Assembly (NCBI GenBank): GCA_028715785.1 | Contig: JAQURC010000008.1 | Span: 1 to 63,646 of the forward strand | Direction of reading: 5' to 3' | From: Candidatus Omnitrophota bacterium | GTDB lineage: Bacteria > Omnitrophota > Gorgyraeia > Gygaellales > Profunditerraquicolaceae | DNA length: 63,646 nucleotides | Shown here: positions 1 to 62,049 of the stretch, one piece after another | Position numbering within the stretch: the first letter of the stretch is position 1 | How the letters are laid out: the number at the start of each line of letters is the position of its first letter | Notes under the pieces: model-generated | What the model saw: only the letters and a program-made list of their open reading frames with translations | Databases searched by the model: none | What the model was told of the DNA's origin: nothing | Program-made: the position numbers and the translations under genes

Positions 1-137
1 GTAAATTCAAATATCCGGTTGATAAGTTTAACCGTTATTTTTGTACCGGCTGCGGAAGGTGCACGCGGACCTGTATGGCGGATATCAGCCTGATTGAAAC
101 TGTAAATTCCCTGCTTAGTGAAGAGGGATTGGAATAA
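1..137 (+). CDS. 3' end of sulfhydrogenase-type [NiFe] hydrogenase beta subunit (4Fe-4S protein), truncated by window edge
   Basis: Frame 3 is open from the window edge to TAA at 135-137. The tail KFKYPVDKFNRYFCTGCGRCTRTCMADISL carries a CxxCxxCxxxC ferredoxin motif. It lies directly upstream of the gamma, delta and alpha genes, matching the beta-gamma-delta-alpha order of Pyrococcus sulfhydrogenase. Confidence 0.6.
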   Translation, partial: KFKYPVDKFNRYFCTGCGRCTRTCMADISLIETVNSLLSEEGLE

Positions 138-145
138 TTGGAAAT

Positions 146-195
146 ACACCCCGCGCTTATAAGGTATTGCGCGGGTGTGCCCTTGTGGGCAAGGA
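146..195 (+). repeat. short palindromic repeat, family D, copy 1 (two hairpins plus SD)
   Basis: Sequence ACACCCCGCGCTTATAAGGTATTGCGCGGGTGTGCCCTTGTGGGCAAGGAG. It is near-identical to 36917-36970, and its first hairpin matches 30980-31012. Confidence 0.9.
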
Positions 196-201
196 GATTA
201 T

Positions 202-1068
202 ATGCTTGAACGTGAGATACTTTTGGAAAAAATGAGGACTACTCCTTATCTGCCGATGAAGGCTAAGATCCTCGAAGCGCAGATGGTTACGGATAAAGAA
301 AAATTCTTCCGTATCCAGCTGGAAAATAAAATTAATCTTGGGCATGTTCCGGGGCAATTTGTGATGGTTTCTATTTTCGGTTTTGGAGAAGCCCCGATTT
401 CGGTCTGTTCATCGCCAAGCGATAAAGGTTATTTTGAGCTTACCGTCAGAAACGTCGGTGTCTTTACCGCTAAGCTGCATAAATTGGGCAAAGGGGACCA
501 ACTAGGGATCCGCGGGCCTTTCGGCAAAGGATTTCCCGTGGATAATATGTTCGGTTACGACGTGATGATTGTCGCCGGAGGATTAGGCATCGTCCCGCTG
601 CGTTCTTTGATCAGGTATATTATGCATAACCGTAATGATTTCGGCAATGTGCAGATCCTGCTTGGCTGCAGGAGCCCCAAAGAACTGTTATTTGAAGAGG
701 AAACCAAGGAATGGATGAGAAGGGCGGAGATTAAATTTAATTGTACCGTTGACCGGGCAGATCCGGATTGGAAGGGTAATGTCGGCCTGATTACTACCTT
801 AATTCCCGGAGTAGACATTAATCCTACCCGCACCTACGGGGTTGTGGTCGGCCCGCCGATTATGTATAAGTTTGTTATCGTCAAATTGCTGGAGAAAAAA
901 ATACCCGACCACCAGATCATTGTTTCTTTGGAAAGGCGGATGCGCTGCGGTTTGGGCAAATGCGGGCACTGTCAGATTGAAGGCGTTTATGTCTGCCAGT
1001 CGGGCCCGGTATTCACTTATAATGATTTAAAAAAATTTAAAGGAGAGTGTCATGAAAAAGCAGTCTAA
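202..1068 (+). CDS. sulfhydrogenase-type hydrogenase gamma subunit (FAD/NAD(P)-binding, 2Fe-2S; PyrK/AsrB-like)
   Basis: Motifs GQFVMVS, RGPFGKGF and AGGLGIVP, plus C-terminal RCGLGKCGHCQ. I moved the start to ATG 202 (MLEREIL), which lies behind AGGAG at 192-196, instead of the track's GTG 175, which lies inside a repeat element. Confidence 0.85.
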   Translation: MLEREILLEKMRTTPYLPMKAKILEAQMVTDKEKFFRIQLENKINLGHVPGQFVMVSIFGFGEAPISVCSSPSDKGYFELTVRNVGVFTAKLHKLGKGDQLGIRGPFGKGFPVDNMFGYDVMIVAGGLGIVPLRSLIRYIMHNRNDFGNVQILLGCRSPKELLFEEETKEWMRRAEIKFNCTVDRADPDWKGNVGLITTLIPGVDINPTRTYGVVVGPPIMYKFVIVKLLEKKIPDHQIIVSLERRMRCGLGKCGHCQIEGVYVCQSGPVFTYNDLKKFKGECHEKAV

Positions 1069-1816
1069 GCCCAAGGTGGCATTTTTTGATTTTACGGATT
1101 GTGAGGGCTGCCAGCTTCAGTTTGCCAATATGGGTAATACTTTTCTTGAATTGACCGAGCTTGTTGATATCGTCAGTTTCCGGGAAGTTATGTCGGAAAG
1201 CGGCCAGGATTATGATGTTGCTATTGTCGAAGGAAGTATTACTACCGATAATGATGTTGCGCGGATTAAGAAGATCAGGGAGAAGGCAAAGATTTTAGTG
1301 GCTTTCGGTTCCTGCGCGACTATCGGCGGAGTAAACGGAATCAAGAACCGCTCATCCCTGGAGCTGGCCAAACAAAGAGTTTATGGCGATAAGGCAGGGT
1401 TGATCAATACGATTAAGACTATGCCGCTGGACGCGGTAGTGAAAGTGGATTATTATATCCTTAATTGCCCGCCTTATATCCCGGAGATTATCGCGGTCCT
1501 CAAGGCAATCCTTTTGGGTAAGCCTTATCCTCTGCCCAATTATCCTGTTTGCGTGGAATGTAAAATGAATGAAAATGTCTGCCGTTATGAAAAGGATCAG
1601 GAGTGTATGGGCCCGGTTACCCGCGCCGGATGCAACTCTTGGTGCGTTAATAACGGAAACCGCTGCTACGGCTGCCGCGGATTGGTCGACAAACCCGCAA
1701 GCGACGCGGCCAAAGATATTTTGCAAAAATACGGGCTAAAAGTCGAAGATATCCTGAATAGTTTTACTTTATATAATGATTCTATGGGGGAGAAATATGA
1801 CCAAGAGTTCAAGTAA
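1052..1816 (+). CDS. [NiFe] hydrogenase small (delta) subunit, group 3 type
   Basis: Contains FFDFTDCEGCQ and GSCATIGG, with a Cys-rich C-terminus (CVECK...CMGPVTRAGCNSWC...CYGCRG). AGGAGAG lies before the ATG. Confidence 0.85.
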   Translation: MKKQSKPKVAFFDFTDCEGCQLQFANMGNTFLELTELVDIVSFREVMSESGQDYDVAIVEGSITTDNDVARIKKIREKAKILVAFGSCATIGGVNGIKNRSSLELAKQRVYGDKAGLINTIKTMPLDAVVKVDYYILNCPPYIPEIIAVLKAILLGKPYPLPNYPVCVECKMNENVCRYEKDQECMGPVTRAGCNSWCVNNGNRCYGCRGLVDKPASDAAKDILQKYGLKVEDILNSFTLYNDSMGEKYDQEFK

Positions 1817-3146
1817 AATAGATCCGCAAAACCTGAATGTTGATGTGCATTACCTGACCAGAGTGGAAGGCCATGGTAATATTGTTGTGGACGTAAAAGA
1901 AGGCAAGCTGGCTAAATGCGAGTTCCAGGTAATTGAATCTCCGCGTTTTTTTGAGTCGATGCTTGTCGGCAGGTCGATCTGGGAAGCCCAGCATCTGACC
2001 AGCCGTATCTGCGGCATTTGCGCCTGCGGGCACACTCTGGCCAGCATTAAGGCGGCCGAGGATGCCTTGGGCGTAAAACCATCAGCTGAGGTAGTGATGC
2101 TCCGGAAGCTGCTGCTATACACCGAGATGCTGGACAGCCATATTTTGCATATCTATATTCTGGTTGCTCCGGATTTATTAGGGGTAAAAAGTATTGTTCC
2201 TTTGATCAAAACGCACCGGCCGGTAATTGAGATGGCTTTACGGATGAAGCGGATGAGTGATTATGGCGGAGAGGTGCTTGCCGGCAGGCATATCCATCCG
2301 ATAAGTTATGTTATCGGCGGGCTTACCCAGCTTCCCTCGAGGGAAGGGCTGGAAAAATTGTATAGTCTGATGTTAGAATCGCGCAAGGACGGCGAAGCGA
2401 CGGTAAAGATCATCAAGACCCTTAAATTTCCGCAATTCCAGAGGCCGACCCAGTATATGTCGCTAACCTCGGATAATGAATACGCGATGTATGACGGAGA
2501 TTTAATGGTTAACGGGGAAAAGAGCAAGGTGCGGGATTACCGTAAACTTTTTATGGAGTCCGTGGTTGATTATTCCAAGGCCAAAATTTCCAAGATCAAC
2601 GGCAAATCTTACGCCGTGGGATCCCTGTCGCGCTTTAACAATAATTTCAATAAGCTGCACAAGAAAGCAAAAGCAGTGGCAGCTGAATTAGGCCTAAAGG
2701 CCCCCTGCCATAATCCTTACCTTAATACTGCCGCCCAGCTGGTGGAATGGGTGCATTGCCTGGAAGAATCCATTACTATACTTGAGAAGATTTTAAAAGA
2801 CGGATTAAAGGAGGAGGGAGTGGTGGTTGCCTCCTGGCCAAAGAGAAGCGAAGTTGGCAAGATTAAATATAAACCCAACACCGGAGCAGGATGCGTTGAG
2901 GTGCCCCGTGGTTCTTTATTCCATGAATATACGATCGATGATTCCGCTCATATTACTGCTGCCAACTGTGTGATCCCTACCAATCAAAATATGGGGAATT
3001 TAGAGGATGACATGCGCAAACTTGTCCCGGAGTTGTTGGGTAAGAAAACTCAAGAGGAGATTACCCTTGACCTTGAGATGCTGGCCCGTTCCTATGACCC
3101 CTGCATATCCTGCGCCACGCATTTGCTGGACGTAAGCTTTGTCTAA
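1797..3146 (+). CDS. [NiFe] hydrogenase large (alpha) subunit
   Basis: Has the N-terminal RICGICACGH and C-terminal DPCISCATH Ni-Fe ligand motifs, with a short LLDVSFV tail after the His. The start is placed at ATG 1797, behind GGGGGAG. Confidence 0.95.
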   Translation: MTKSSSKIDPQNLNVDVHYLTRVEGHGNIVVDVKEGKLAKCEFQVIESPRFFESMLVGRSIWEAQHLTSRICGICACGHTLASIKAAEDALGVKPSAEVVMLRKLLLYTEMLDSHILHIYILVAPDLLGVKSIVPLIKTHRPVIEMALRMKRMSDYGGEVLAGRHIHPISYVIGGLTQLPSREGLEKLYSLMLESRKDGEATVKIIKTLKFPQFQRPTQYMSLTSDNEYAMYDGDLMVNGEKSKVRDYRKLFMESVVDYSKAKISKINGKSYAVGSLSRFNNNFNKLHKKAKAVAAELGLKAPCHNPYLNTAAQLVEWVHCLEESITILEKILKDGLKEEGVVVASWPKRSEVGKIKYKPNTGAGCVEVPRGSLFHEYTIDDSAHITAANCVIPTNQNMGNLEDDMRKLVPELLGKKTQEEITLDLEMLARSYDPCISCATHLLDVSFV

Positions 3147-3603
3147 AAAAATCGCGGTAATCGGCTTAGGCAACAGTTTAAGGAGAGATGACGGAATAGG
3201 GGTAATTATTCTGGGGTCCCTCCTTAATCATTATCGGCGCCCGGGCATAGATTATCTTGATTTTGGCATCGCCAGTTTTGATTTAATCCACCGCCTGCAG
3301 GACTACGGCATGGTTTTGCTTATCGACGGTATCAACGCAAAATTACCGGCAGGGGAACTAAAGATATTTGGTTTAGAGCAAGCCTCTTTTACAAATAAAG
3401 ATACGGCGGTTTCATCCCATGAATTAAATCTTAAGGATATTTTCCGGTTGACGCGTGATTTGGAGATTGCCACCAAAATTTATGTTGCCGGCGTCCAGGT
3501 GGCTGATGTGGGTTTCGGCGAGTCTTTAAGCGCCGCGTTACAAGAAAAGCTGCAAGAGTTGACCGAAGGAGTCGATAAATTTATCCAAGAAAGGCTGCTT
3601 TAA
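3139..3603 (+). CDS. hydrogenase maturation endopeptidase (HycI/HoxW/FrhD family)
   Basis: Begins IAVIGLGNSLRRDDGIG and is 154 aa long. Its TTG start overlaps the large subunit stop codon. Confidence 0.85.
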   Translation: MSKKIAVIGLGNSLRRDDGIGVIILGSLLNHYRRPGIDYLDFGIASFDLIHRLQDYGMVLLIDGINAKLPAGELKIFGLEQASFTNKDTAVSSHELNLKDIFRLTRDLEIATKIYVAGVQVADVGFGESLSAALQEKLQELTEGVDKFIQERLL

Positions 3604-3609
3604 TTTAAA

Positions 3610-4911
3610 ATGTGTTATGCCATACCGGGAAAAGTAGAAAAAATAGAGAATAACACGGTCACCGTGGATTATTTCGGCGAGAAAAGGAAAGCCCATAATG
3701 AGCTCTCCAGAATCGCTATCGGCGATTATATCTACGCGCAGGGCGGGTTTGTGGTCAGCAAGATTTCTCCCTCTGAGGCCCAAACCATTCTCTCTGTGTG
3801 GAAAGAAACATTTTTCCAATTGCAGGAGGTGGATTTAAAGCTTTCCCGCCTGCAGCTTAACGATAAAAATACGGATAAGAAATTATTTGGAATATTGGAT
3901 AAGGCCAGCCAGTCAAGAGAGCTCAGCCGCCAGGAGTTGCTGAGCCTGCTGGAGTTAAAAGATAAGCCTAAGATAGAGTTATTTTTTAAAACAGCAAATT
4001 TCCTGCGCCAGAAATACCATAAAAATTCCTGCTGTGTCCACGGGATAATCGAGATATCCAATTATTGTTGCCGGGGCTGCCAGTATTGCGGGATATCTTA
4101 TCATAATAAAAAGTTAAAGCGCTATCGTATGGCTAAAGATGAGATTTTACAGGCGGCCAAAGAGGCGGTTGAGGTTTATGGATTTAAATCTTTGGTTTTG
4201 CAAAGCGGAGAGGATCCCGGATACAGCATTGAGGAGTTAACGGATATCGTTAAGCAGATTAAGGAGAAATTCCCCGCGCTGATTTTTATAAGTTTTGGCG
4301 AGATCGGGGTGGAGGGTTTAGAAAAACTTTATCAGGCAGGAGCCCGCGGCCTGCTGATGCGTTTTGAAACTTCTAATCCTCAACTTTATCAGAAAGTACA
4401 TCCGGAGATGAGTTTAGAGAACCGGCTGCTGCATTTACGCAAGGCCTACGCTATGGGTTATTTAATTCTTACCGGAGGATTGATTGGATTACCCGGGCAG
4501 AGCAGTGAAGATATTTTAAACGACTTGTTTCTGGCTAAAGAATTGCGCGCGGAGATGTATAGTTTCGGCCCTTTTATCCCGCATCCGGCCACGCCTTTCT
4601 CGAATCACAAACCCGTGCCGGCAGAAGAAGTGATTAAGGTCTTGGCCCTGGCCAGAATTATGGGCGACAATAATGCCAAGATCCTGGTAACTAGCGCTCT
4701 GGAAACTTTAAGCAGGGAGGCGGCAAAAAACAGCCTGCTTGCCGGAGCAAATTCGCTGATGCTTAATGTTACTCCGTTATCCTATCGGCCGTTTTACTCT
4801 ATTTATCCGGACAGAGCGCATCAATCCGAGGATATTTCCGCGCAGATTGAATCCACAGTTTCCTTATTGCGTTCTTTAGGCCGGGCACCGACGGATCTGG
4901 AGGCAGTGTAA
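3610..4911 (+). CDS. hydE: HypC/HupF-like domain fused to [FeFe]-hydrogenase radical SAM maturase HydE
   Basis: Residues 1-75 (MCYAIPGKVEKI...GDYIYAQGGFVVSKISPSEAQ) carry the HypC signature. The rest matches HydE: ISNYCCRGCQYCGISYHNKKLKRYRM, VLQSGEDP, RFETSNP, GLPGQ, FGPFIPHP. It is a single uninterrupted ORF. Confidence 0.85.
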   Translation: MCYAIPGKVEKIENNTVTVDYFGEKRKAHNELSRIAIGDYIYAQGGFVVSKISPSEAQTILSVWKETFFQLQEVDLKLSRLQLNDKNTDKKLFGILDKASQSRELSRQELLSLLELKDKPKIELFFKTANFLRQKYHKNSCCVHGIIEISNYCCRGCQYCGISYHNKKLKRYRMAKDEILQAAKEAVEVYGFKSLVLQSGEDPGYSIEELTDIVKQIKEKFPALIFISFGEIGVEGLEKLYQAGARGLLMRFETSNPQLYQKVHPEMSLENRLLHLRKAYAMGYLILTGGLIGLPGQSSEDILNDLFLAKELRAEMYSFGPFIPHPATPFSNHKPVPAEEVIKVLALARIMGDNNAKILVTSALETLSREAAKNSLLAGANSLMLNVTPLSYRPFYSIYPDRAHQSEDISAQIESTVSLLRSLGRAPTDLEAV

Positions 4912-5001
4912 CAGTTCAGCTCTCAGAAGAGCCCCGTCGTAGGGCAGGTTTAAACCTGCCCTACAGTCCCGTCGAAGCACTTTCAAGGGCTGAACTGTTA
5001 C
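4908..5001 (+). repeat. family C palindromic element (outer 13-bp stem, inner GTAG...CTAC 26-mer), complete copy
   Basis: The outer arms GTAACAGTTCAGC and GCTGAACTGTTAC are perfect complements. The inner palindrome GTAGGGCAGGTTTAAACCTGCCCTAC lies at 4939-4964. The element overlaps the hydE stop codon. Confidence 0.9.
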
Positions 5002-5017
5002 CAGGCAGTTTAATTTT

Positions 5018-6406
5018 ATGAAATACATTAACGCAGAAAAAATAAATAATTTATTATCCAAGGCCGTAAACACTGACCAGCGCGCTCTGGATGCTATCTT
5101 GAAAAAGAGCCGGGCGCTTAAGCGGCTTACTTTGGCTGAGTCCGCGGCTTTACTGGCGGTCAATGATCCTGAATCTATTCAGAAGATATTCAGCGCGGCT
5201 AATTCAGTTAAGGAAGAGATTTATGGCAGGAGAATAGTGCTTTTTGCCCCGCTTTATATCAGCAACCTTTGCGCTAATAATTGTTTATATTGCGCGTTTA
5301 AAGCGGATAACCCGTTGATTAAGCGTAAAGCCCTGACTGTGCCTGAGATTAACCATCAGGTAGAGTGGCTCCTGGGGCGCGGCCACAAGAGGATACTGAT
5401 GGTCTGCGGAGAAGGTGCCCCGGAGGCTAAATCCAATATAGATTATTACCTCCAGGCAGTTGAGGCTATTTACGCGGCAGGAGTTGGCAAGCATAAAATA
5501 AAAAGAGTTAATGTTAATTGCGCGCCGCTTGCTGCCAGCGAATTTAAGCGGCTTAAGGAGAGCGGGATTGGAACTTATCAGGTTTTTCAGGAAACTTACC
5601 ATGAAGAAACTTACCGCCGCATGCATCCTAAAGGGCCAAAAAGCGATCCGGATAATCGGATTGACGCGGTTGACCGCGCGTTTACCGCGGGGATAGATGA
5701 TATCGGGATCGGGGTCCTTTACGGCCTATATGATTACCGCTTTGAAACTTTAGGCCTGCTTTCCCATATCGAACATATGGAAGAGAAATTTAAGGTCGGG
5801 CCGCACACTATTTCGGTGCCGCGCATTGAGCCGGCAGAAGGGGCGCAATTATCTTTTAACCCTCCCAGCAAAATTTCTGATGAGGAGTTTAAGAAGGTGG
5901 TGGCGGTTTTAAGGCTTTCGGTGCCCTATACCGGGATAATTATGTCTACGCGGGAAGACCCGCTGCTGCGCGATACGCTTCTGAGCCTGGGTGTTTCTCA
6001 GATTAGCGCCGAATCTTCTACCTCACCCGGAGGTTATTCCGCCAGCGCCGAAGAACAGGCAGGCGGCCAATTTTCTCTCGGCGACCACCGCAGTTTGGAT
6101 GAAATAGTCGGGACTTTAATTGCCCATGATTATATTCCCAGTTTTTGCGCCGCTTGTTACCGGATGAACCGGACCGGTGAAAGTTTTATGCAGCTGGCTA
6201 AGCCCGGAACGATTAAGGGCAAATGCAAGATGAATGCTTTGATTACCTTAAAGGAATATCTTGATGATTTTGCTTCCGTATCGGTCAGGGATGCCGGCTC
6301 TAAAATGATCACGCGCTATTTAAAACAACTGGATCCGCCTGAACAAGCTAAACTGAGAGAATTTTTTAACCATGTCGAAAAAGGGCTAAGGGATGAATAT
6401 GTCTGA
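5018..6406 (+). CDS. hydG: [FeFe]-hydrogenase radical SAM maturase HydG (ThiH-like tyrosine lyase)
   Basis: Has the CANNCLYC radical SAM motif and the C-terminal CAAC-x22-C (CxxCx22C) motif that separates HydG from ThiH. Confidence 0.9.
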   Translation: MKYINAEKINNLLSKAVNTDQRALDAILKKSRALKRLTLAESAALLAVNDPESIQKIFSAANSVKEEIYGRRIVLFAPLYISNLCANNCLYCAFKADNPLIKRKALTVPEINHQVEWLLGRGHKRILMVCGEGAPEAKSNIDYYLQAVEAIYAAGVGKHKIKRVNVNCAPLAASEFKRLKESGIGTYQVFQETYHEETYRRMHPKGPKSDPDNRIDAVDRAFTAGIDDIGIGVLYGLYDYRFETLGLLSHIEHMEEKFKVGPHTISVPRIEPAEGAQLSFNPPSKISDEEFKKVVAVLRLSVPYTGIIMSTREDPLLRDTLLSLGVSQISAESSTSPGGYSASAEEQAGGQFSLGDHRSLDEIVGTLIAHDYIPSFCAACYRMNRTGESFMQLAKPGTIKGKCKMNALITLKEYLDDFASVSVRDAGSKMITRYLKQLDPPEQAKLREFFNHVEKGLRDEYV

Positions 6407-7265
6407 TTTGAGTAAAGCCGGTAAAATAATAGCTAAAGAAATTATTGCGGATTATGCCGGAGTAAGGATTGTCAAGTTGACAGTCAGCGCCCCGGAGATT
6501 AGCCGCAAGGCCAAGGCAGGGCAATTCGTCGTCGTTATGGCAAGTGAAAAAGGAGAGCGGATACCGCTTACGATTGTTGAGGCAGATAGTAAAGCCCAGA
6601 CCATTACGCTTATCTTTCAGGAAGCGGGGCTGACCACCAAAATTTTAAGCATGCTTAATGCCGGAGATGATTTATACGCCTTAGCCGGCCCGCTGGGGCA
6701 TGCTAGCGAAATAAAAAATTATGGCAAGGTCATTTTAGTCGGCGGTGGAGTAGGAATTGCCGAAATTTATCCTGTGGCAACCAGCCTAAAGCAGGCAGGC
6801 CTGCCTGCCGGACAGGCAGGGAACAATATTACGGTAGTTATTGGAGCCAAGACTAAAGAATTATTAATACTGGAAAAAGAACTCAGGGATACGGCGGATA
6901 AAATTTATCTGATGACTGACGACGGCTCGCTTGGCCAGAAAGGTTTTACCACCGATGTTTTAGAGGAACTGCTTAAAAAAGATAAGTATGATTTAGTTTA
7001 CGCGGTGGGGCCAATCCCGATGATGAAGAAAGTTTCGCAGATTAGCCAGTCTTTCAATATTAAAACAATTGTTTCATTAAACGCGCTGATGGTTGATGCT
7101 ACCGGGATGTGCGGTTGCTGCCGGGTAACCGTTGCCGGAAAAGTAAAATTCAGCTGCGTCGACGGCCCGGAGTTTGAAGCCGGCCAGGTGGATTGGGAAG
7201 AGCTAGAAAAGAGAAACTTGATGTATTTGGATAAAGAGAAGCATCTTTGTAAGTTGAAGGGATGA
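6393..7265 (+). CDS. nfnA: NfnA/SudB-like ferredoxin-NADP reductase subunit (PyrK-like FAD, 2Fe-2S)
   Basis: Contains AGQFVVV, GPLG and VGGGVGIAE, with C-terminal DATGMCGCCRV. It is paired with a GltD-like gene downstream. Confidence 0.8.
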   Translation: MNMSDLSKAGKIIAKEIIADYAGVRIVKLTVSAPEISRKAKAGQFVVVMASEKGERIPLTIVEADSKAQTITLIFQEAGLTTKILSMLNAGDDLYALAGPLGHASEIKNYGKVILVGGGVGIAEIYPVATSLKQAGLPAGQAGNNITVVIGAKTKELLILEKELRDTADKIYLMTDDGSLGQKGFTTDVLEELLKKDKYDLVYAVGPIPMMKKVSQISQSFNIKTIVSLNALMVDATGMCGCCRVTVAGKVKFSCVDGPEFEAGQVDWEELEKRNLMYLDKEKHLCKLKG

Positions 7266-7276
7266 TTTTATTTTTC

Positions 7277-7312
7277 GTAGGTGACGTTTAAACGTCACCT
7301 ACGTTGTGGATA
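7277..7312 (-). repeat. variant or partial copy of the GTAG-GTTTAAAC-CTAC element (REP-1)
   Basis: GTAGGTGACGTTTAAACGTCACCTAC plus GTTGTGGATAA. It differs from the other copies by a paired C-to-G / G-to-C change that keeps the palindrome perfect. Confidence 0.8.
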
Positions 7313-7315
7313 ACT

Positions 7316-8728
7316 ATGGAAAAAAAACCTGTTAGGGCAAAAGAGTTAGCTGCCGGTAAAAGGATAAGCGGATTCGATGAAGTAGTATCCGGATATTCGC
7401 AAGAAGAGGCTTTAGCTGAGAGCCTGCGTTGTCTCCAATGTAAAAATCCCGCCTGCATTTCGGGTTGCCCGGTAAATATCAATATTAAAGAGTTTATCTT
7501 CCAGGTTACCAAAAAAGATTATGCCGGAGCTTATTTTACTATCCGTAAAACGAATAATTTTCCTTCCATCTGCGGCCGGGTTTGCCCGGCGGAATACCAA
7601 TGCCGCAAGGCCTGCGTGTTGAATAAAAGCAAATTCGCCTATTGCGGCCCCGAGGCAATCAATATCCATTTTTTGGAGAGGTTTGTCGGCGACTATGGAA
7701 TGCGCAATAACTTGCAGGCACCGGTAGAAAAAGATGCCCAATCATCGAAGGCCAAAGTAGCGGTGGTTGGCAGCGGCCCGGCCGGGTTATGCTGCGCCGG
7801 TGAATTAGCCAGAAAGGGAATAGCCGTAGTTGTTTTTGAAAGCCTGCAGAGTTGCGGCGGAGTTTTAAGGTACGGGATCCCGAACTTCCGCCTGCCGCGG
7901 GAGATCCTTGATTATGAGATTAATTATTTAGCAAAATTAGGAGTAGAATTTAAAACTAATGTTGTCGTGGGCAAGACCGTTTCTCTGGAGGAATTATTTC
8001 AGCAGGGGTTTAGCCGGGTTTTCCTGGGGCTGGGCGCCGGAGTGCCGTCATTTTTGGGTATAAAGGGGGAGAACCTCTGTAATGTTTATTCGGCCAATGA
8101 ATTTTTGACCCGGGTGAACCTGATGTCCGCCTATAAATTTCCCGAATACCACACTCCGGTAAATATCGGCCAACATGTCCTGGTCGTCGGAGGGGGCAAT
8201 ACCGCCATGGATGCGGCGCGTTGCGCTTTGCGCCTGCAAAAGATAAACGGTATAAAACCGGACGTAAAGATTATTTACCGCCGCACATTAACCGAGATGC
8301 CAGCACGCAGGCTTGAGATTAAGCATGCCGAAGAAGAAGGGATTAAATTTAGATTCCTGGTTCAGCCTAAAGAGTTTCACGCCGATAATAGAGGCTTTGT
8401 GCGGGAATTAAATTGCCTTAGTTGTGAACTTAGGGAAGCGGATGCCTCCGGCAGGAGAAAGCCTGTTGTCTTAGAAGACAGTGATTTTAGTATCCCTTGC
8501 GATCTGGCGATCATAGCTATCGGTTTGGAGGCAAACCAGGTTTTAACCAGCGCCACTCCTGAATTAAAAACCGATAAATACAAAGATATTATGATTAATC
8601 CTGCGACCATGGAGACTTCCATTAAACATGTTTTTGCCGGCGGAGATATTGCCGGCGGAGAAGGGACGGTTATTGAGGCCATGGGCATGGCCAAGAAAGC
8701 CGCAATAAGCATCCTGCAAAATCCTTGA
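7316..8728 (+). CDS. nfnB: NfnB/SudA/GltD-like NADPH-dependent oxidoreductase (glutamate synthase small-chain family)
   Basis: Contains CLQCKNPACISGCPV and CGRVCP Fe-S motifs and the VAVVGSGPAGL dinucleotide fold. The start is set at ATG 7316 (MEKKPV). Confidence 0.85.
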   Translation: MEKKPVRAKELAAGKRISGFDEVVSGYSQEEALAESLRCLQCKNPACISGCPVNINIKEFIFQVTKKDYAGAYFTIRKTNNFPSICGRVCPAEYQCRKACVLNKSKFAYCGPEAINIHFLERFVGDYGMRNNLQAPVEKDAQSSKAKVAVVGSGPAGLCCAGELARKGIAVVVFESLQSCGGVLRYGIPNFRLPREILDYEINYLAKLGVEFKTNVVVGKTVSLEELFQQGFSRVFLGLGAGVPSFLGIKGENLCNVYSANEFLTRVNLMSAYKFPEYHTPVNIGQHVLVVGGGNTAMDAARCALRLQKINGIKPDVKIIYRRTLTEMPARRLEIKHAEEEGIKFRFLVQPKEFHADNRGFVRELNCLSCELREADASGRRKPVVLEDSDFSIPCDLAIIAIGLEANQVLTSATPELKTDKYKDIMINPATMETSIKHVFAGGDIAGGEGTVIEAMGMAKKAAISILQNP

Positions 8729-8827: not shown

Positions 8828-8867
8828 AAGACGTCTATTAAATCTAAATAGGCGTCTTATTTTTTTA
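8828..8867 (+). terminator. intrinsic terminator-like hairpin plus T-run downstream of nfnB
   Basis: AAGACGTCTATT-loop-AATAGGCGTCTT is followed by ATTTTTTT. Confidence 0.65.
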
Positions 8868-10591: not shown

Positions 10592-10680
10592 AAGGGGGAC
10601 GGTTCTATTTTTTATCCACAGAGTAGCTGACGTTTAAACGTCAGCTACAAAGTACAGAAGAATAGAACCGTCCCCTTTTT
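10592..10680 (+). repeat. REP-1 nested palindromic element, copy 1
   Basis: The outer stem is AAGGGGGACGGTTCTATT / AATAGAACCGTCCCCTT. Its loop carries TATCCACAGAGTAGCTGACGTTTAAACGTCAGCTACAAAGTACAGAA, and a T-run follows. Confidence 0.9.
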
Positions 10681-10722
10681 ATTTAGTTGCAGGAGTAGTT
10701 TTTTGGTTGTAAAATAGTTATT

Positions 10723-23438: not shown

Positions 23439-23520
23439 AGGGGACGCTCTATTTTTTATCCACAGAGCAGCTGACGTTTAAACGTCAGCTACAAAGTACA
23501 GAAAAATAGGAATAGTCCCT
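23437..23520 (+). repeat. REP-1 element, copy 2 (degenerate outer stem), between the convergent M48 peptidase and lpxB genes
   Basis: It has the same inner sequence, with GCAG in place of GTAG. The right end overlaps the lpxB stop codon by 2 nt. Confidence 0.85.
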
Positions 23521-24709
23521 AGTTTTTCTGCAGGAATTCAAGGATTAGCTTGGCTGCGCGCCCTGCCGCGCCAGGTTGACCCAGGGAATCTTTTACTGCT
23601 TTTAGATCCTGGCTCATGCGGTTGGCAGAGAGAGGATCTTGTAGAAGTTCGATCATTGATTTGGAAATTATTTTAGGCCGGGCGCCAAACTGGATAAACT
23701 CCGGAACGATTTTTCTTCCCGCCACGATATTGACCATGCCGATATAGGGGATTTTTATTTGCGGCCGGTAAAGCAGGTAGTTTAAGATATTAGTTTTGTA
23801 TACGATTACAAAAGGCTTCTGCATAATTGCCGCTTCCAAGGTGGCGGTCCCGGAGCAGACGATGCTTGCCTGGGCGATATTCAGGCAATCGTAAGTCAAG
23901 CCGTCAATAATTTTGAAGTCCAAATTGAATTTTTTACATTCATCCCAATATAGCTGTTGATCTAAATTCGGGGCTTTAGCGATAATAAATTGCGCCTGCG
24001 GGATTGCCTTATTGATCAGGGCTGCCGCCTTAAGCATTAAAGGCAGGATTATTTTTATTTCTTGTTTCCGTGATCCGGGGAGCAGGGCAATAATTTTTTT
24101 GGACGGGTCAATCCGGAAATTATTTGCAAATTCCTGTTTTTCTAGAGCAGGTTTTACCAGGTCTATTAATGGATGTCCAACGCAGGCTGCCTGGATTCCC
24201 CGCTGTTTGTAAAACTCTTCTTCAAATTTAAAAAGCACAACCATCATCGAGATAAATTTTTTTATGCAATTTATCCTGCTTTCCCTTGAGGCCCAAAGCT
24301 GCGGGCTGACATAATAAATAACCGGTATGCGTTTATTGATGGTTCGACCTTGCTCACCATCAATCCTGAGCGTAGTCGAAGGATTGACCGCTTTGGCCAG
24401 GCGCAGGTTAAAACCGGAAAAATCGACCAGGATTACGGCATCCGGTTTATCGGCATCGATTTTGCTTAAAATTATTTTTTTTAACTCAAAGAATTTCGGC
24501 AGTTTCTTTAAGACATCGAATAACCCCATGACCGCAAGCCCTTGGATATCGTAGAAAATTTCGCATCCGGCTTTGGCTAAACGCGCTCCTCCTGCGCCGG
24601 ATATTTTTATATCCGGTTCAAGATTTTTAATTGCGCCGACCAGGTTTGCGGCCAAAAGGTCGCCGGAAGGCTCGCCGCAAACAATAAATATTTTTTTTAT
24701 CTGTGCCAT
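23519..24709 (-). CDS. lpxB: lipid-A-disaccharide synthase
   Basis: Contains IFIVCGEPSGD and YYVSPQLWASR, and aligns along its full length with the LpxB architecture. Confidence 0.9.
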   Translation of the reverse strand: MAQIKKIFIVCGEPSGDLLAANLVGAIKNLEPDIKISGAGGARLAKAGCEIFYDIQGLAVMGLFDVLKKLPKFFELKKIILSKIDADKPDAVILVDFSGFNLRLAKAVNPSTTLRIDGEQGRTINKRIPVIYYVSPQLWASRESRINCIKKFISMMVVLFKFEEEFYKQRGIQAACVGHPLIDLVKPALEKQEFANNFRIDPSKKIIALLPGSRKQEIKIILPLMLKAAALINKAIPQAQFIIAKAPNLDQQLYWDECKKFNLDFKIIDGLTYDCLNIAQASIVCSGTATLEAAIMQKPFVIVYKTNILNYLLYRPQIKIPYIGMVNIVAGRKIVPEFIQFGARPKIISKSMIELLQDPLSANRMSQDLKAVKDSLGQPGAAGRAAKLILEFLQKN

Positions 24710-25662: not shown

Positions 25663-25730
25663 GTAACAGTTCAGCTCTCAGAAGAACCCCGTCGTAGGGC
25701 AGGTTTAAACCTGCCCTGCTCAAGACTAAA
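25663..25730 (+). repeat. family C element, right-truncated copy
   Basis: GTAACAGTTCAGCTCTCAGAAGAACCCCGTCGTAGGGCAGGTTTAAACCTGCCCTGC matches 4908-4964 with 2 differences. The right arm is missing. Confidence 0.85.
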
Positions 25731-25797
25731 TAATGAACCTTGCGCCATCTGCTGCAAATAGCTATCAACGTGTCGCAACCTATCTTCACTAGCAAAT

Positions 25798-25882
25798 AAA
25801 GGGGACGGTTCTATTTTTCTGTACTTTGTAGCTGACGTTTAAACGTCAGCTACTCTGTGGATAAAAAATAGAACTGTCCCCT
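25798..25882 (-). repeat. REP-1 element, copy 3 (inverted orientation)
   Basis: AAAGGGGACGGTTCTATTTTTCTGTACTTTGTAGCTGACGTTTAAACGTCAGCTACTCTGTGGATAAAAAATAGAACTGTCCCCT is the reverse complement of the copy 1/4 arrangement. Confidence 0.9.
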
Positions 25883-25915
25883 GATTTTCGCCCTATTTTT
25901 ATCTAATAAAAAGGT

Positions 25916-30979: not shown

Positions 30980-31012
30980 GCACCCCGCGCTTATAAGGTA
31001 TTGCGCGGGTGC
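30980..31012 (+). repeat. family D repeat, copy 2 (first hairpin only), between tRNA-Leu and tRNA-Gly
   Basis: GCACCCCGCGCTTATAAGGTATTGCGCGGGTGC is identical to the copy 1 hairpin. Confidence 0.9.
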
Positions 31013-31022
31013 GCGTTCGTAC

Positions 31023-31096
<74 letters not shown>

Positions 31097-36916: not shown

Positions 36917-36970
36917 ACACCCCGCGCTTATAAGGAATTGCGCGGGTGTGCCCCTGTGGGCAAGAGAGGA
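36917..36970 (+). repeat. family D repeat, copy 3, between metK and ahcY
   Basis: Sequence ACACCCCGCGCTTATAAGGAATTGCGCGGGTGTGCCCCTGTGGGCAAGAGAGGA. It ends in the ahcY Shine-Dalgarno. Confidence 0.9.
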
Positions 36971-60838: not shown

Positions 60839-60922
60839 AAGGGGACGGTTCTATTTTTTATCCACAGAGTAGCTGACGTTTAAACGTCAGCTACAAAGTA
60901 CAGAAAAATATAACCGTCCCCT
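60839..60922 (+). repeat. REP-1 element, copy 4, between the convergent ferredoxin and SurA-like genes
   Basis: It is near-identical to copy 1 and is followed by GTTTTTT. It probably also acts as a bidirectional terminator. Confidence 0.9.
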
Positions 60923-60927
60923 GTTTT

Positions 60928-62049
60928 TTATTGCGCCTTTTTAATCAACTCTTCAGTAAACTTACCAAAAACTTCGTTTTTATTTTCCGAGATTAATTTT
61001 TGGCTAAATTCCTGTTTTTCCTTAGCGAATTTAGCTTCATCGATAGGCTTGATTGCATCCAGCTTGATAATATAATAGCCTTTTTCGTTAGAAAGTATAC
61101 TGCTTAGCTCTTTATCTTTTAGCTTTTTGGCGGTATTCCAGAAAATTTCCGCAGCGCCTAAGTTTTCAACCTGGCCGCTGGATTTGAAGAAGGCGGTTTG
61201 TCCGGTTTTTAATCCGCTGGATTTGGCCGCTCGAACAAATTCCTCATTTTTTAATATTTCTGCGCATTCCTTTATTTTATCCTCCGCCATTTTTTTAGTT
61301 TTTTCTTTAATCAAGGCGTTTTTAACCTTGTCCTTAATCTCGGTTAAATCCGGGATACGCGCCGGTTTATCTTTAACAGGAGGTTCTTTAAACATAGCTT
61401 TATTCTTGCCAAAGAAAGAAGCGATTTCTTCATCGGTGGGCTTGATTTTTGCGGCAAAATCGGAAAATAAACTGGCAATATAATGAATATTTAATTCCTG
61501 GTTGGCTTGCGTGTATTTTTGGCGGATCTGCTCATCGCTTAGCCGCACATCTTTAGTTACCTGCTCGTAAAGTTTAGCCAGGGTCAAACTCTGGCGCATC
61601 TGTTCCTCAAAAATGCGCGGCTGCAGCCTGAAGACATAGCGCAGGGTTTGGACATAGGCTTTATTATTAAAGCCGTTTTTGTCCTGAAAATAAGCGGCGC
61701 TCTGGATTGTGTTGATAACTTCTTTGTCGCTTATGTTGATTTTACGCCTTTTTGCTTCATGCAAAAGGATCAACCTTTGCCAGGCTTGCGCCTCTAAGTT
61801 TAAGTATTTCTCAATCTCCGGGAGTTTATCCCCGAATTGCATAGTGGCCGATGTCCTTACGGCTGAAAGGGATTCTTTAAACTCAAGATTTGAGACATTA
61901 TGGCCGAATATCCTCCCGACAGCGGCAGTTTCTTCCTTACTGCGGAATGCCCCCCCGAATCCCCAGAGAGCAAAGGCAGGGATGATGATTATGGCTAAAC
62001 CAATCCAGACTTTTTTCGCGGTTTTCTTATTGCGTAAAATTTTTAACAT
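60928..62049 (-). CDS. SurA N-terminal domain / PpiD-like periplasmic chaperone (signal-anchored)
   Basis: Has an N-terminal TM segment (VWIGLAIIIIPAFALWGF) and a lysine-rich helical body typical of PpiD/SurA-N proteins. No clear PPIase motif is visible. Confidence 0.65.
   Translation of the reverse strand: MLKILRNKKTAKKVWIGLAIIIIPAFALWGFGGAFRSKEETAAVGRIFGHNVSNLEFKESLSAVRTSATMQFGDKLPEIEKYLNLEAQAWQRLILLHEAKRRKINISDKEVINTIQSAAYFQDKNGFNNKAYVQTLRYVFRLQPRIFEEQMRQSLTLAKLYEQVTKDVRLSDEQIRQKYTQANQELNIHYIASLFSDFAAKIKPTDEEIASFFGKNKAMFKEPPVKDKPARIPDLTEIKDKVKNALIKEKTKKMAEDKIKECAEILKNEEFVRAAKSSGLKTGQTAFFKSSGQVENLGAAEIFWNTAKKLKDKELSSILSNEKGYYIIKLDAIKPIDEAKFAKEKQEFSQKLISENKNEVFGKFTEELIKKAQ

Follow-up and report, generated by a model that had tools for sequence, protein, structure and literature searches.

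A HypC-HydE fusion protein and HydG in [NiFe] hydrogenase operons of Omnitrophota and other bacteria: a candidate radical-SAM maturation module

Why does an operon for a [NiFe] hydrogenase encode maturases of the [FeFe] type, one of them covalently joined to a carrier of the [NiFe] type? The question is raised by a contig of a Candidatus Omnitrophota bacterium (GenBank assembly GCA_028715785.1, contig JAQURC010000008.1, positions 1 to 63,646 of the forward strand; the window hereafter means this whole stretch of 63,646 nucleotides), in which a gene at 3610–4911 encodes a HypC-like domain fused to a HydE-type radical S-adenosylmethionine (SAM) enzyme and a gene at 5018–6406 encodes HydG, both on the plus strand and downstream of the genes of a [NiFe] hydrogenase. 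In the textbook view, the machineries that mature [NiFe] hydrogenases (HypA to HypF) and [FeFe] hydrogenases (HydE, HydF, and HydG) are unrelated. Our favored answer, to which we give a probability of roughly 60%, is that HypC-HydE and HydG together make up a radical-SAM module that serves specifically to mature group 3b and group 4 [NiFe] hydrogenases. A first-pass annotation made from the DNA letters alone had offered two branches, delivery of HydG/HydE chemistry to a carrier of the HypC type that serves a [NiFe] enzyme or recruitment of a HypC fold into H-cluster assembly; the comparative evidence below favors the former and speaks against the latter. The annotation knew of neither having been described, and our literature search, with most subscription journals outside its reach, likewise turned up no account of a HypC-HydE protein, nor of HydG or HydE in [NiFe] maturation.

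The fusion opens as a HypC. The open reading frame (ORF) at 3610–4911 is single and unbroken, starts with ATG, and encodes 433 amino acids. Its HypC-like domain (residues 1–79; 3610–3846, plus strand) was delimited from the Pfam match, the structural model, and residue statistics. PF01455 (HupF_HypC) matches residues 1–64 with 53 bits against a cutoff of 28.5, and residues 1–67 match the solved HypC structures 2z1c, 3d3r, and 3vyr (E ~1e-6); the score for TIGR00074, the NCBIfam model of HypC, lies below its cutoff (43.4 vs 48). The N-terminal Met-Cys that the first-pass annotation had pointed out belongs to the start MCYAIPGK, of which Met1, Cys2, Pro6, and Gly7 are invariant in 82 of 82 fusions, and the HypC domain is always N-terminal, which fits the need for a free N-terminal cysteine. 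The position of Escherichia coli His51 is occupied by Gln in 81 of the 82 fusions (Gln44 in the window, within a YAQGG motif) and by Thr in one; divergent fusions with short linkers have Tyr, Thr, or Ala there. C2 and H51 of HypC, together with C41 of HypD, have been linked to the binding of iron, and activity is lost when they are exchanged (PMC12134894). The strictly conserved replacement of His51 would fit a HypC domain that no longer acts on HypD.

The remainder of the protein is a HydE, as the first-pass annotation had also proposed. A short linker (approximately residues 80–94; 3847–3891, plus strand) leads into the radical-SAM domain (residues 95–433; 3892–4911, plus strand), which matches PF04055 (Radical_SAM) and BATS in Pfam. 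Its best NCBIfam match is TIGR03956 (HydE) over residues 96–414, with 252.7 bits marginally under the cutoff of 254.6, and the runner-up is PylB with 145 bits; structures of Thermotoga maritima HydE align over residues 95–427 with 241 bits, compared with 87 bits for the PylB structure. Identity to T. maritima HydE is ~45%. The CX3CX2C motif, C153/C157/C160 in the window, is present in 80 of 82 fusions, and the dispensable C-terminal cysteines of the auxiliary cluster are missing. Residues aligned to R159, T268/T269, M224, and M291 of T. maritima HydE, which we take to line the substrate site, are identical or conservatively replaced. Fused HydE domains of the Omnitrophota branch score at or below the HydE cutoff, and triple fusions that also include HydG score 348–371. 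The AlphaFold2 (AF2) model shows one confident body (mean predicted local distance difference test score [pLDDT] 90.1; predicted template modeling score 0.90), with the strands of an OB-fold at residues 7–52, a helix at 54–79 (pLDDT ~78–93), and then the HydE barrel; the linker is the sole stretch of lower confidence (pLDDT 64 for residues 81–90).

The HydG next to the fusion is canonical. It scores 496.5 bits with TIGR03955 (cutoff 312) and is ~55% identical to Thermoanaerobacter italicus HydG (PDB 4wcx) over its full length (444 bits, residues 3–461). The CANNCLYC and C-terminal CAAC-x22-C motifs that had been read from the translation both align with 4wcx, as does the stretch GPHTISVPR, whose His is presumably a ligand of the extra Fe. 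Elsewhere, 12 of the 34 full-length HydGs associated with fusions lack the canonical C-terminal CX2CX22C (L018, L019, L022, L028, L033, L041, L042, L049, L054, L055, L069, and L075; none of these is the HydG of the window). Their motif, SFCTAGYRCGRTGxCIMELLxxGxEGKFCKLNA, has four cysteines spaced C-X5-C-X5-C-X13-C, with the second canonical Cys changed to Gly, and it is found mostly in group-4 [NiFe] contexts. In these variants, the bridge to the extra Fe, otherwise a free cysteine, might be provided by a Cys of the protein itself. We know of no description of this C-X5-C-X5-C-X13-C form of HydG.

The fusion is widespread and largely of one lineage. Of the 120 best database clusters, 119 share the PF01455 plus PF04055 architecture (62–93% identity, 431–451 aa), the lone exception being a partial sequence. 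An exhaustive search of 1.84 billion representatives (50% clustering) added ~20 clusters with 35–60% identity that match from residue 1. All 80 of the 80 best species-representative loci hold the full-length fusion, except that contig ends truncate it in a few. By title, these loci come from Omnitrophota, Margulisiibacteriota/Saganbacteria/WOR-1, Atribacterota, Brevinematales, Scalindua and other Planctomycetota, Riflebacteria, Elusimicrobia, Kiritimatiellia, Verrucomicrobia, and others, roughly ten phyla overall, with the phylum names being submitter labels of which some are possibly wrong. Carriers in Atribacterota include Caldatribacterium (L025 and L036) and an isolate of Atrimonadaceae whose chromosome is complete, and a Pseudomonadota metagenome-assembled genome (MAG) also bears the fusion. 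In public databases, these proteins are named either "HydE" or "HypC family chaperone." A neighbor-joining tree of 224 HydE domains places all 100 fused domains under a common ancestor that includes only 6 of the 124 non-fused ones, at least four of which are fragments or mis-started fusions; the standalone HydE linked to an [FeFe] hydrogenase in L017, sampled as one of the non-fused domains, is none of these six. The fused HydE domains are a single near-exclusive clade. We dropped RFET, as opposed to RHET, as a marker of this clade because RFET occurs in standalone HydEs too. Four HydEs of the standalone type (P0187, P0199, P0218, and P0266) carry at their N-terminus a PF11823 "putative Se/S carrier" domain, small, Cys-bearing, and unrelated to HypC, suggesting that HydE-carrier fusions are a recurrent arrangement; three others (P0149, P0198, and P0185) have a different, unrecognized N-terminal extension of ~100 aa.

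The genes around the fusion belong mostly to [NiFe] hydrogenases. ORFs were called in 83 non-redundant loci and the window, i.e., 84 loci with 1.38 Mb in total that extend ~10 kb in both directions from the fusion, and were labeled with seed proteins from the window, the E. coli hyp region, and related loci; recurrent unlabeled neighbors were assigned by Pfam. A [NiFe] large subunit is encoded in 61 of the 84 loci and in 35 of the 40 whose flanks each measure 8 kb or more. It is of group 3b in 43 loci and of the membrane-bound group 4 (Complex1_49kDa plus NiFeSe, with Mrp/Mbh modules) in 18, and both nickel-iron Cys motifs are kept in all full-length representatives (40 of 40 in group 3b, 17 of 17 in group 4). 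An [FeFe] hydrogenase occurs in five of the 84 loci, each time besides a 3b enzyme. Whether the fusion keeps company with hydA or with the [NiFe] genes was a test set in advance by the first-pass annotation, and these counts (5 vs 61) place it with the latter. Directly upstream of the fusion is the protease HycI in 25 loci and HypA in 19; the fusion occupies the hypC slot, after HycI or HypA. HydG is a separate gene in 35 loci and part of a triple fusion in two more (37 in total; 22 among the 46 loci whose flanks are each 5 kb or longer), and it is the gene directly downstream of the fusion in 15 loci. HypD, HypE, or HypF was found in none of the 84 loci (phmmer E ≤ 1, tblastn E < 1e-3). That the seeds are sensitive is shown by the one for E. 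coli HypA, which recovers this small protein at least 19 times, and the E. coli HypB seed likewise recovers homologs in the same loci. HypB is present in one of the 84 (L068), with a second in L089, a locus added later. The canonical adjacency of hypC and hypD (E. coli order hypABCDE) was not seen beside the fusion in the 84 loci. HydF never adjoins it in a tblastn search with a HydF seed, and a regular-expression screen of the loci for HydF-like GTPases was also empty.

Several features recur in these loci beside the core genes. A Rex-like regulator (Put_DNA-bind_N plus CoA_binding) is the gene directly downstream of the fusion in 18 loci; it occurs at L001:11410–12045 and in 25 other loci (e.g., L011, L012, L016, L019, and L041) after the fusion and often before HydG, and is not in the window, which has a palindromic repeat there instead. 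The domain content of this gene suggests control of the maturation genes in response to NADH/NAD. Ten of the 17 group-4 large subunits stop exactly at DPCxxCxx[HR] with no C-terminal extension; this set includes L047, L058, L059, L061, L073, L080, L082, L084, and L087, where HycI is absent and the fusion is kept. In a Candidatus Scalindua sp., L079:8411–8569 is a 52-codon HypC-like ORF 1.4 kb upstream of the fusion, whose PF01455 match (27.5 bits) is just below the cutoff and covers the N-terminal 33 residues only. It may be the remnant of a standalone hypC.

HypC-HydE with HydG most likely substitutes for HypC-HypD-HypE-HypF in these operons, where we infer that HypD, HypE, and HypF are dispensable. 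In the canonical pathway, Fe(CN)2CO is bound by the N-terminal Cys of HypC, which passes the unit on to the large subunit. For the H-cluster, HydG makes [Fe(Cys)(CO)2(CN)], HydE binds this synthon and activates it through attack of the adenosyl radical on its cysteine sulfur, and the product passes to HydF, the transfer of intermediates among the three being an acknowledged open question (PMC8855341). The proposed mechanism, every chemical step of which we infer, would combine the two. HydG would split tyrosine and assemble an Fe-carbonyl-cyanide unit on its C-terminal cluster, and the HydE domain would take up and process this unit as in H-cluster synthesis. The attached HypC domain would stand in for the HydF scaffold: its Cys2, offering a thiolate and a free amine that could mimic the cysteinate ligand of the HydG synthon, would capture Fe(CO)x(CN)y and pass it to the large subunit in its apo form. 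Nickel insertion by HypA, alone or together with HypB, would come next, and the HycI-type protease would trim the C-terminus. In its fullest form, which we hold tentatively and at somewhat less than even odds, this would be a complete alternative pathway to the [NiFe] site, in which HypD, HypE, and HypF are absent and both CO and CN derive from tyrosine through HydG, a HydE paralog, and a fused HypC. Maturation of [NiFe] and [FeFe] hydrogenases would then share radical-SAM chemistry, which could represent an ancestral condition or an intermediate one between the two systems, and the CO ligand would have a defined anoxic source.

A number of points weigh against this interpretation. The stoichiometries do not match, the HydG product being Fe(CO)2(CN) and the unit of [NiFe] sites Fe(CO)(CN)2. 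Canonical HydE leaves sulfide on Fe and yields the precursor of an Fe(I) dimer, neither of which has an evident function at a [NiFe] site. Of the 46 loci with at least 5 kb of sequence to either side of the fusion, no more than 22 include HydG, and some genomes may lack HydG or encode it elsewhere. The data on hypD, hypE, hypF, hydF, and hydA cover only ~10 kb to either side of the fusion. The HypC domain is without the His51 that E. coli HypC requires (PMC12134894), and with this residue lost its iron binding may be non-canonical.

The main rival is that the module supplements the canonical machinery and does not replace it. HydG and HypC-HydE would give only CO, or an Fe-CO intermediate, to HypCD and HypEF encoded elsewhere in the genome, as a lineage-specific answer to the need for CO under anoxic conditions. 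A 2025 review holds that all six Hyp proteins are required and that the anoxic CO source is unresolved, more than one route being thought likely; HydG and radical-SAM enzymes go unmentioned there (PMC12134894). HypB is nearly always missing from the loci as well (L068 and L089 being the exceptions), and its rarity means that absence from the neighborhood is no proof of absence from the genome. The window moreover encodes CarA and CarB (carbamoyl-phosphate synthase), recognized by reading the translations (CarA is 76% identical to a PF00988-annotated gene of L091), so that a precursor of CN exists. Against a supplement stand the lack of hypC-hypD adjacency beside the fusion in all 84 loci, the loss from the HypC domain of His51, a residue of the iron site on HypCD, and the fact that HydG produces CN besides CO. 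Further, a divergent fusion with 38% identity (L089) lies in the order HycI-HypA-HypB-[HypC-HydE]-HydG, with HydG directly after the fusion at the place of hypD; the locus reads as a hyp operon in which hypCDEF have given way to the fusion and HydG. We consider the supplement less likely than a replacement.

A far less probable explanation, which we reject on the synteny controls, is coincidence: an ordinary maturase of the H-cluster, namely HydE plus a recruited HypC-fold carrier, would merely lie near [NiFe] genes. The HydE domain is clearly of HydE type with its presumed substrate-site residues kept or conservatively replaced, five loci also encode an [FeFe] hydrogenase, and three of these (L001, L013, and L034) have no visible second HydE in the sequence covered. 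However, the other 79 of the 84 loci are without [FeFe] genes, HydF is never beside the fusion, and the association spans two unrelated [NiFe] groups. Published surveys also fail to show an [FeFe] hydrogenase in such lineages: only group 3b and group 4 [NiFe] hydrogenases have been reported in Saganbacteria (PMC6349859), and Omnitrophota MAGs from Ace Lake have a single hydrogenase each, of group 3b in three genera (PMC8542988).

Where the sequence reaches far enough past [FeFe] genes, maturases of their own accompany them. In L017 and L091, the two loci whose sequence extends past the [FeFe] gene, the [FeFe] genes are followed by a TM1266-like gene, HydG, a standalone HydE (356–358 aa), and HydF, and HypC-HydE comes after the [NiFe] protease; in L008, HydG and the start of a standalone HydE are visible before the sequence ends. 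L001 and L091 are parts of one 312-kb contig, with which the window is colinear on both sides. The genes from gamma to the fusion are 71–91% identical, followed by HydG (76%), NfnA (65%), NfnB (69%), and the next genes (59–76%). The window is without a ~16-kb stretch of that contig, corresponding to the window's 4911–6393 region, and only HydG is left between the fusion and NfnA. This island comprises Rex, a kinase, two sets of [FeFe] hydrogenase genes with NuoE/NuoF-like partners and response regulators, a TM1266-like regulator, standalone HydE, and HydF. The [FeFe] island is present in L001/L091, L008, L013, L017, and L034 and absent from the window, L009–L012, and L016; the window thus keeps HydG and not the [FeFe]/HydE/HydF island. 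Natural fusions provide a parallel control. Both HypC-HydE-HydG triple fusions (P0122 and P0129; 906 and 881 aa) lie in 3b-type [NiFe] operons, one of them with HypA nearby, and an 803-aa HydE-HydG fusion without HypC (P0145) lies between an [FeFe]-type sensory hydrogenase and HydF. The architecture of the fusion, its conservation, its specific association with [NiFe] hydrogenases, and its separation from the HydE/HydF set of [FeFe] hydrogenases are all directly apparent in these loci.

An assembly or frameshift error that joined separate hypC and hydE genes, for which nothing was found to count, has a negligible probability. The same architecture of 431–437 aa, with the same length in 119 of 120 clusters and 80 of 80 loci, recurs in hundreds of independent assemblies from different projects, the junction is well conserved (eight invariant positions, W64, E66, F68, F69, L71, Q72, D75, and S79, in 67 sequences), and the AF2 model is confident. 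We rejected an error on these grounds, including the hidden stop codon or frameshift between the domains that the first-pass annotation had raised.

The proposed module shares features with several known systems. It resembles HypC/HybG/HupF in the N-terminal Met-Cys-x-x-[IV]-Pro-Gly, the OB-fold followed by a helix, the place after the protease, HypA, or HypB, and, by analogy, the presumed delivery of an Fe-CO/CN unit to the large subunit; it differs in the covalent radical-SAM partner, Gln for His51, the lack of adjoining hypD, hypE, or hypF, and a TIGR00074 score below cutoff. Unlike in the canonical Hyp route, the predicted source of the ligands is tyrosine, via HydG, and not carbamoyl phosphate. 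With the HydG-HydE-HydF pathway it has in common a full-score HydG with both cluster motifs, a HydE with the radical-SAM motif, and HydG adjacent or fused. The differences from that pathway are a module without HydF and HydA, a HypC carrier at the step of HydF, a [NiFe] client, and a HydE clade of its own. Green algae have a HydEF maturase fusion, which, like the HydE-HydG fusion P0145, places consecutive maturases in one polypeptide, and P0122 and P0129 extend the same logic; HydEF and P0145 both stay within the [FeFe] system, whereas HypC-HydE spans both maturation systems. HypX, the aerobic CO-ligand synthase, is likewise a lineage-restricted accessory route to a diatomic ligand by chemistry outside the core Hyp set, but it uses formyl-tetrahydrofolate/formyl-CoA under oxic conditions alongside HypCDEF, and here radical-SAM cleavage of tyrosine in strict anaerobes is proposed. 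The HydEs with a PF11823 domain are similar in having a small N-terminal domain with a conserved Cys joined to HydE, on a different carrier fold.

If the module works as we propose, [NiFe] and [FeFe] maturation are mechanistically connected in nature, and tyrosine can supply the ligands of a [NiFe] site. A maturation cassette of two or three genes could then ease the heterologous production of [NiFe] hydrogenases. The use of hydE and hydG as automated markers of [FeFe] hydrogenases would mislead in Omnitrophota, Margulisiibacteriota, Atribacterota, anammox bacteria, and others. Caldatribacterium has been isolated in pure culture and makes H2 (PMC13408713), so the interpretation is directly testable in a genus that bears the fusion.

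The hydrogenase of the window is of the 3b type. The first-pass annotation had placed beta, gamma, delta, and alpha subunit genes and an endopeptidase upstream of the fusion, and all of these are there with their Cys motifs, except that beta is represented only by its last ~35 codons (3–107, plus strand; Fer4_22/AsrA-like), cut by the window start and 91% identical to residues 302–336 of the L001 beta subunit (tblastn). The gamma subunit (175–1068, plus strand; FAD/NAD-binding and [2Fe-2S]; PF00970, PF00175, and PF10418) has its best NCBIfam matches in the gamma subunits of cytochrome-c3 hydrogenase and sulfhydrogenase. Its real start is probably the ATG at 202 and not the listed GTG at 175, since the latter falls within a REP-like repeat at 146–193. 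The delta (small) subunit (1052–1816, plus strand) matches PF01058 with 88.8 bits and, best in NCBIfam, sulfhydrogenase delta. The large (alpha) subunit (1776–3146, plus strand; PF00374; best NCBIfam matches sulfhydrogenase ShyA and HydA) has RICGICACGH (L1, RxCGxCxxxH), DPCISCATH (L5, DPCxxCxxH), and a 7-residue C-terminal extension, and the HycI/HybD-type endopeptidase follows (3139–3603, plus strand; PF01750; TIGR00072 97.6 bits, cutoff 47.45). Its group-3b traits are the beta-gamma-delta-alpha set, both motifs, the extension, and a dedicated protease; the label is taken from the subunit set and the best NCBIfam matches, whose equivalog cutoffs are not reached because the models are tuned to Thermococcales enzymes. 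No HydF, [FeFe] hydrogenase, HypA, HypB, HypD, HypE, or HypF was found in the window by blastp, phmmer, or tblastn with E. coli HypA–F, HydF, and [FeFe] seeds, which bears out their earlier reported absence.

Downstream, an NfnA/NfnB-like oxidoreductase pair (6393–8728, plus strand; sulfide dehydrogenase or NADPH-dependent GltD-type; NF004862 352.9 bits, TIGR01316 509.6 bits) overlaps the HydG stop codon and is therefore probably co-transcribed with the hydrogenase and its maturases. The same pair lies directly 3' of HydG in L010–L012, L016, and L091. A promoter/terminator scan of the window gave site counts at chance level; the sole noteworthy site is a terminator-like hairpin at 8828–8858 (plus strand; 12-bp stem and T-run), which is the best candidate for the operon end, though only suggestive.

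Two families of REP/MITE-like intergenic palindromes are scattered through the window. The gap between the fusion and HydG is filled by a REP-like nested palindrome (4908–5005, no strand assigned; repeat families D2 and D7) with the core GTTTAAAC. Other copies of this first family are at 7274–7313, in the gap between NfnA and NfnB, and at 10595–10683, 23439–23527, 25663–25888, and 60841–60929. The second family has copies at 146–193, 30980–31027, and 36917–36964.

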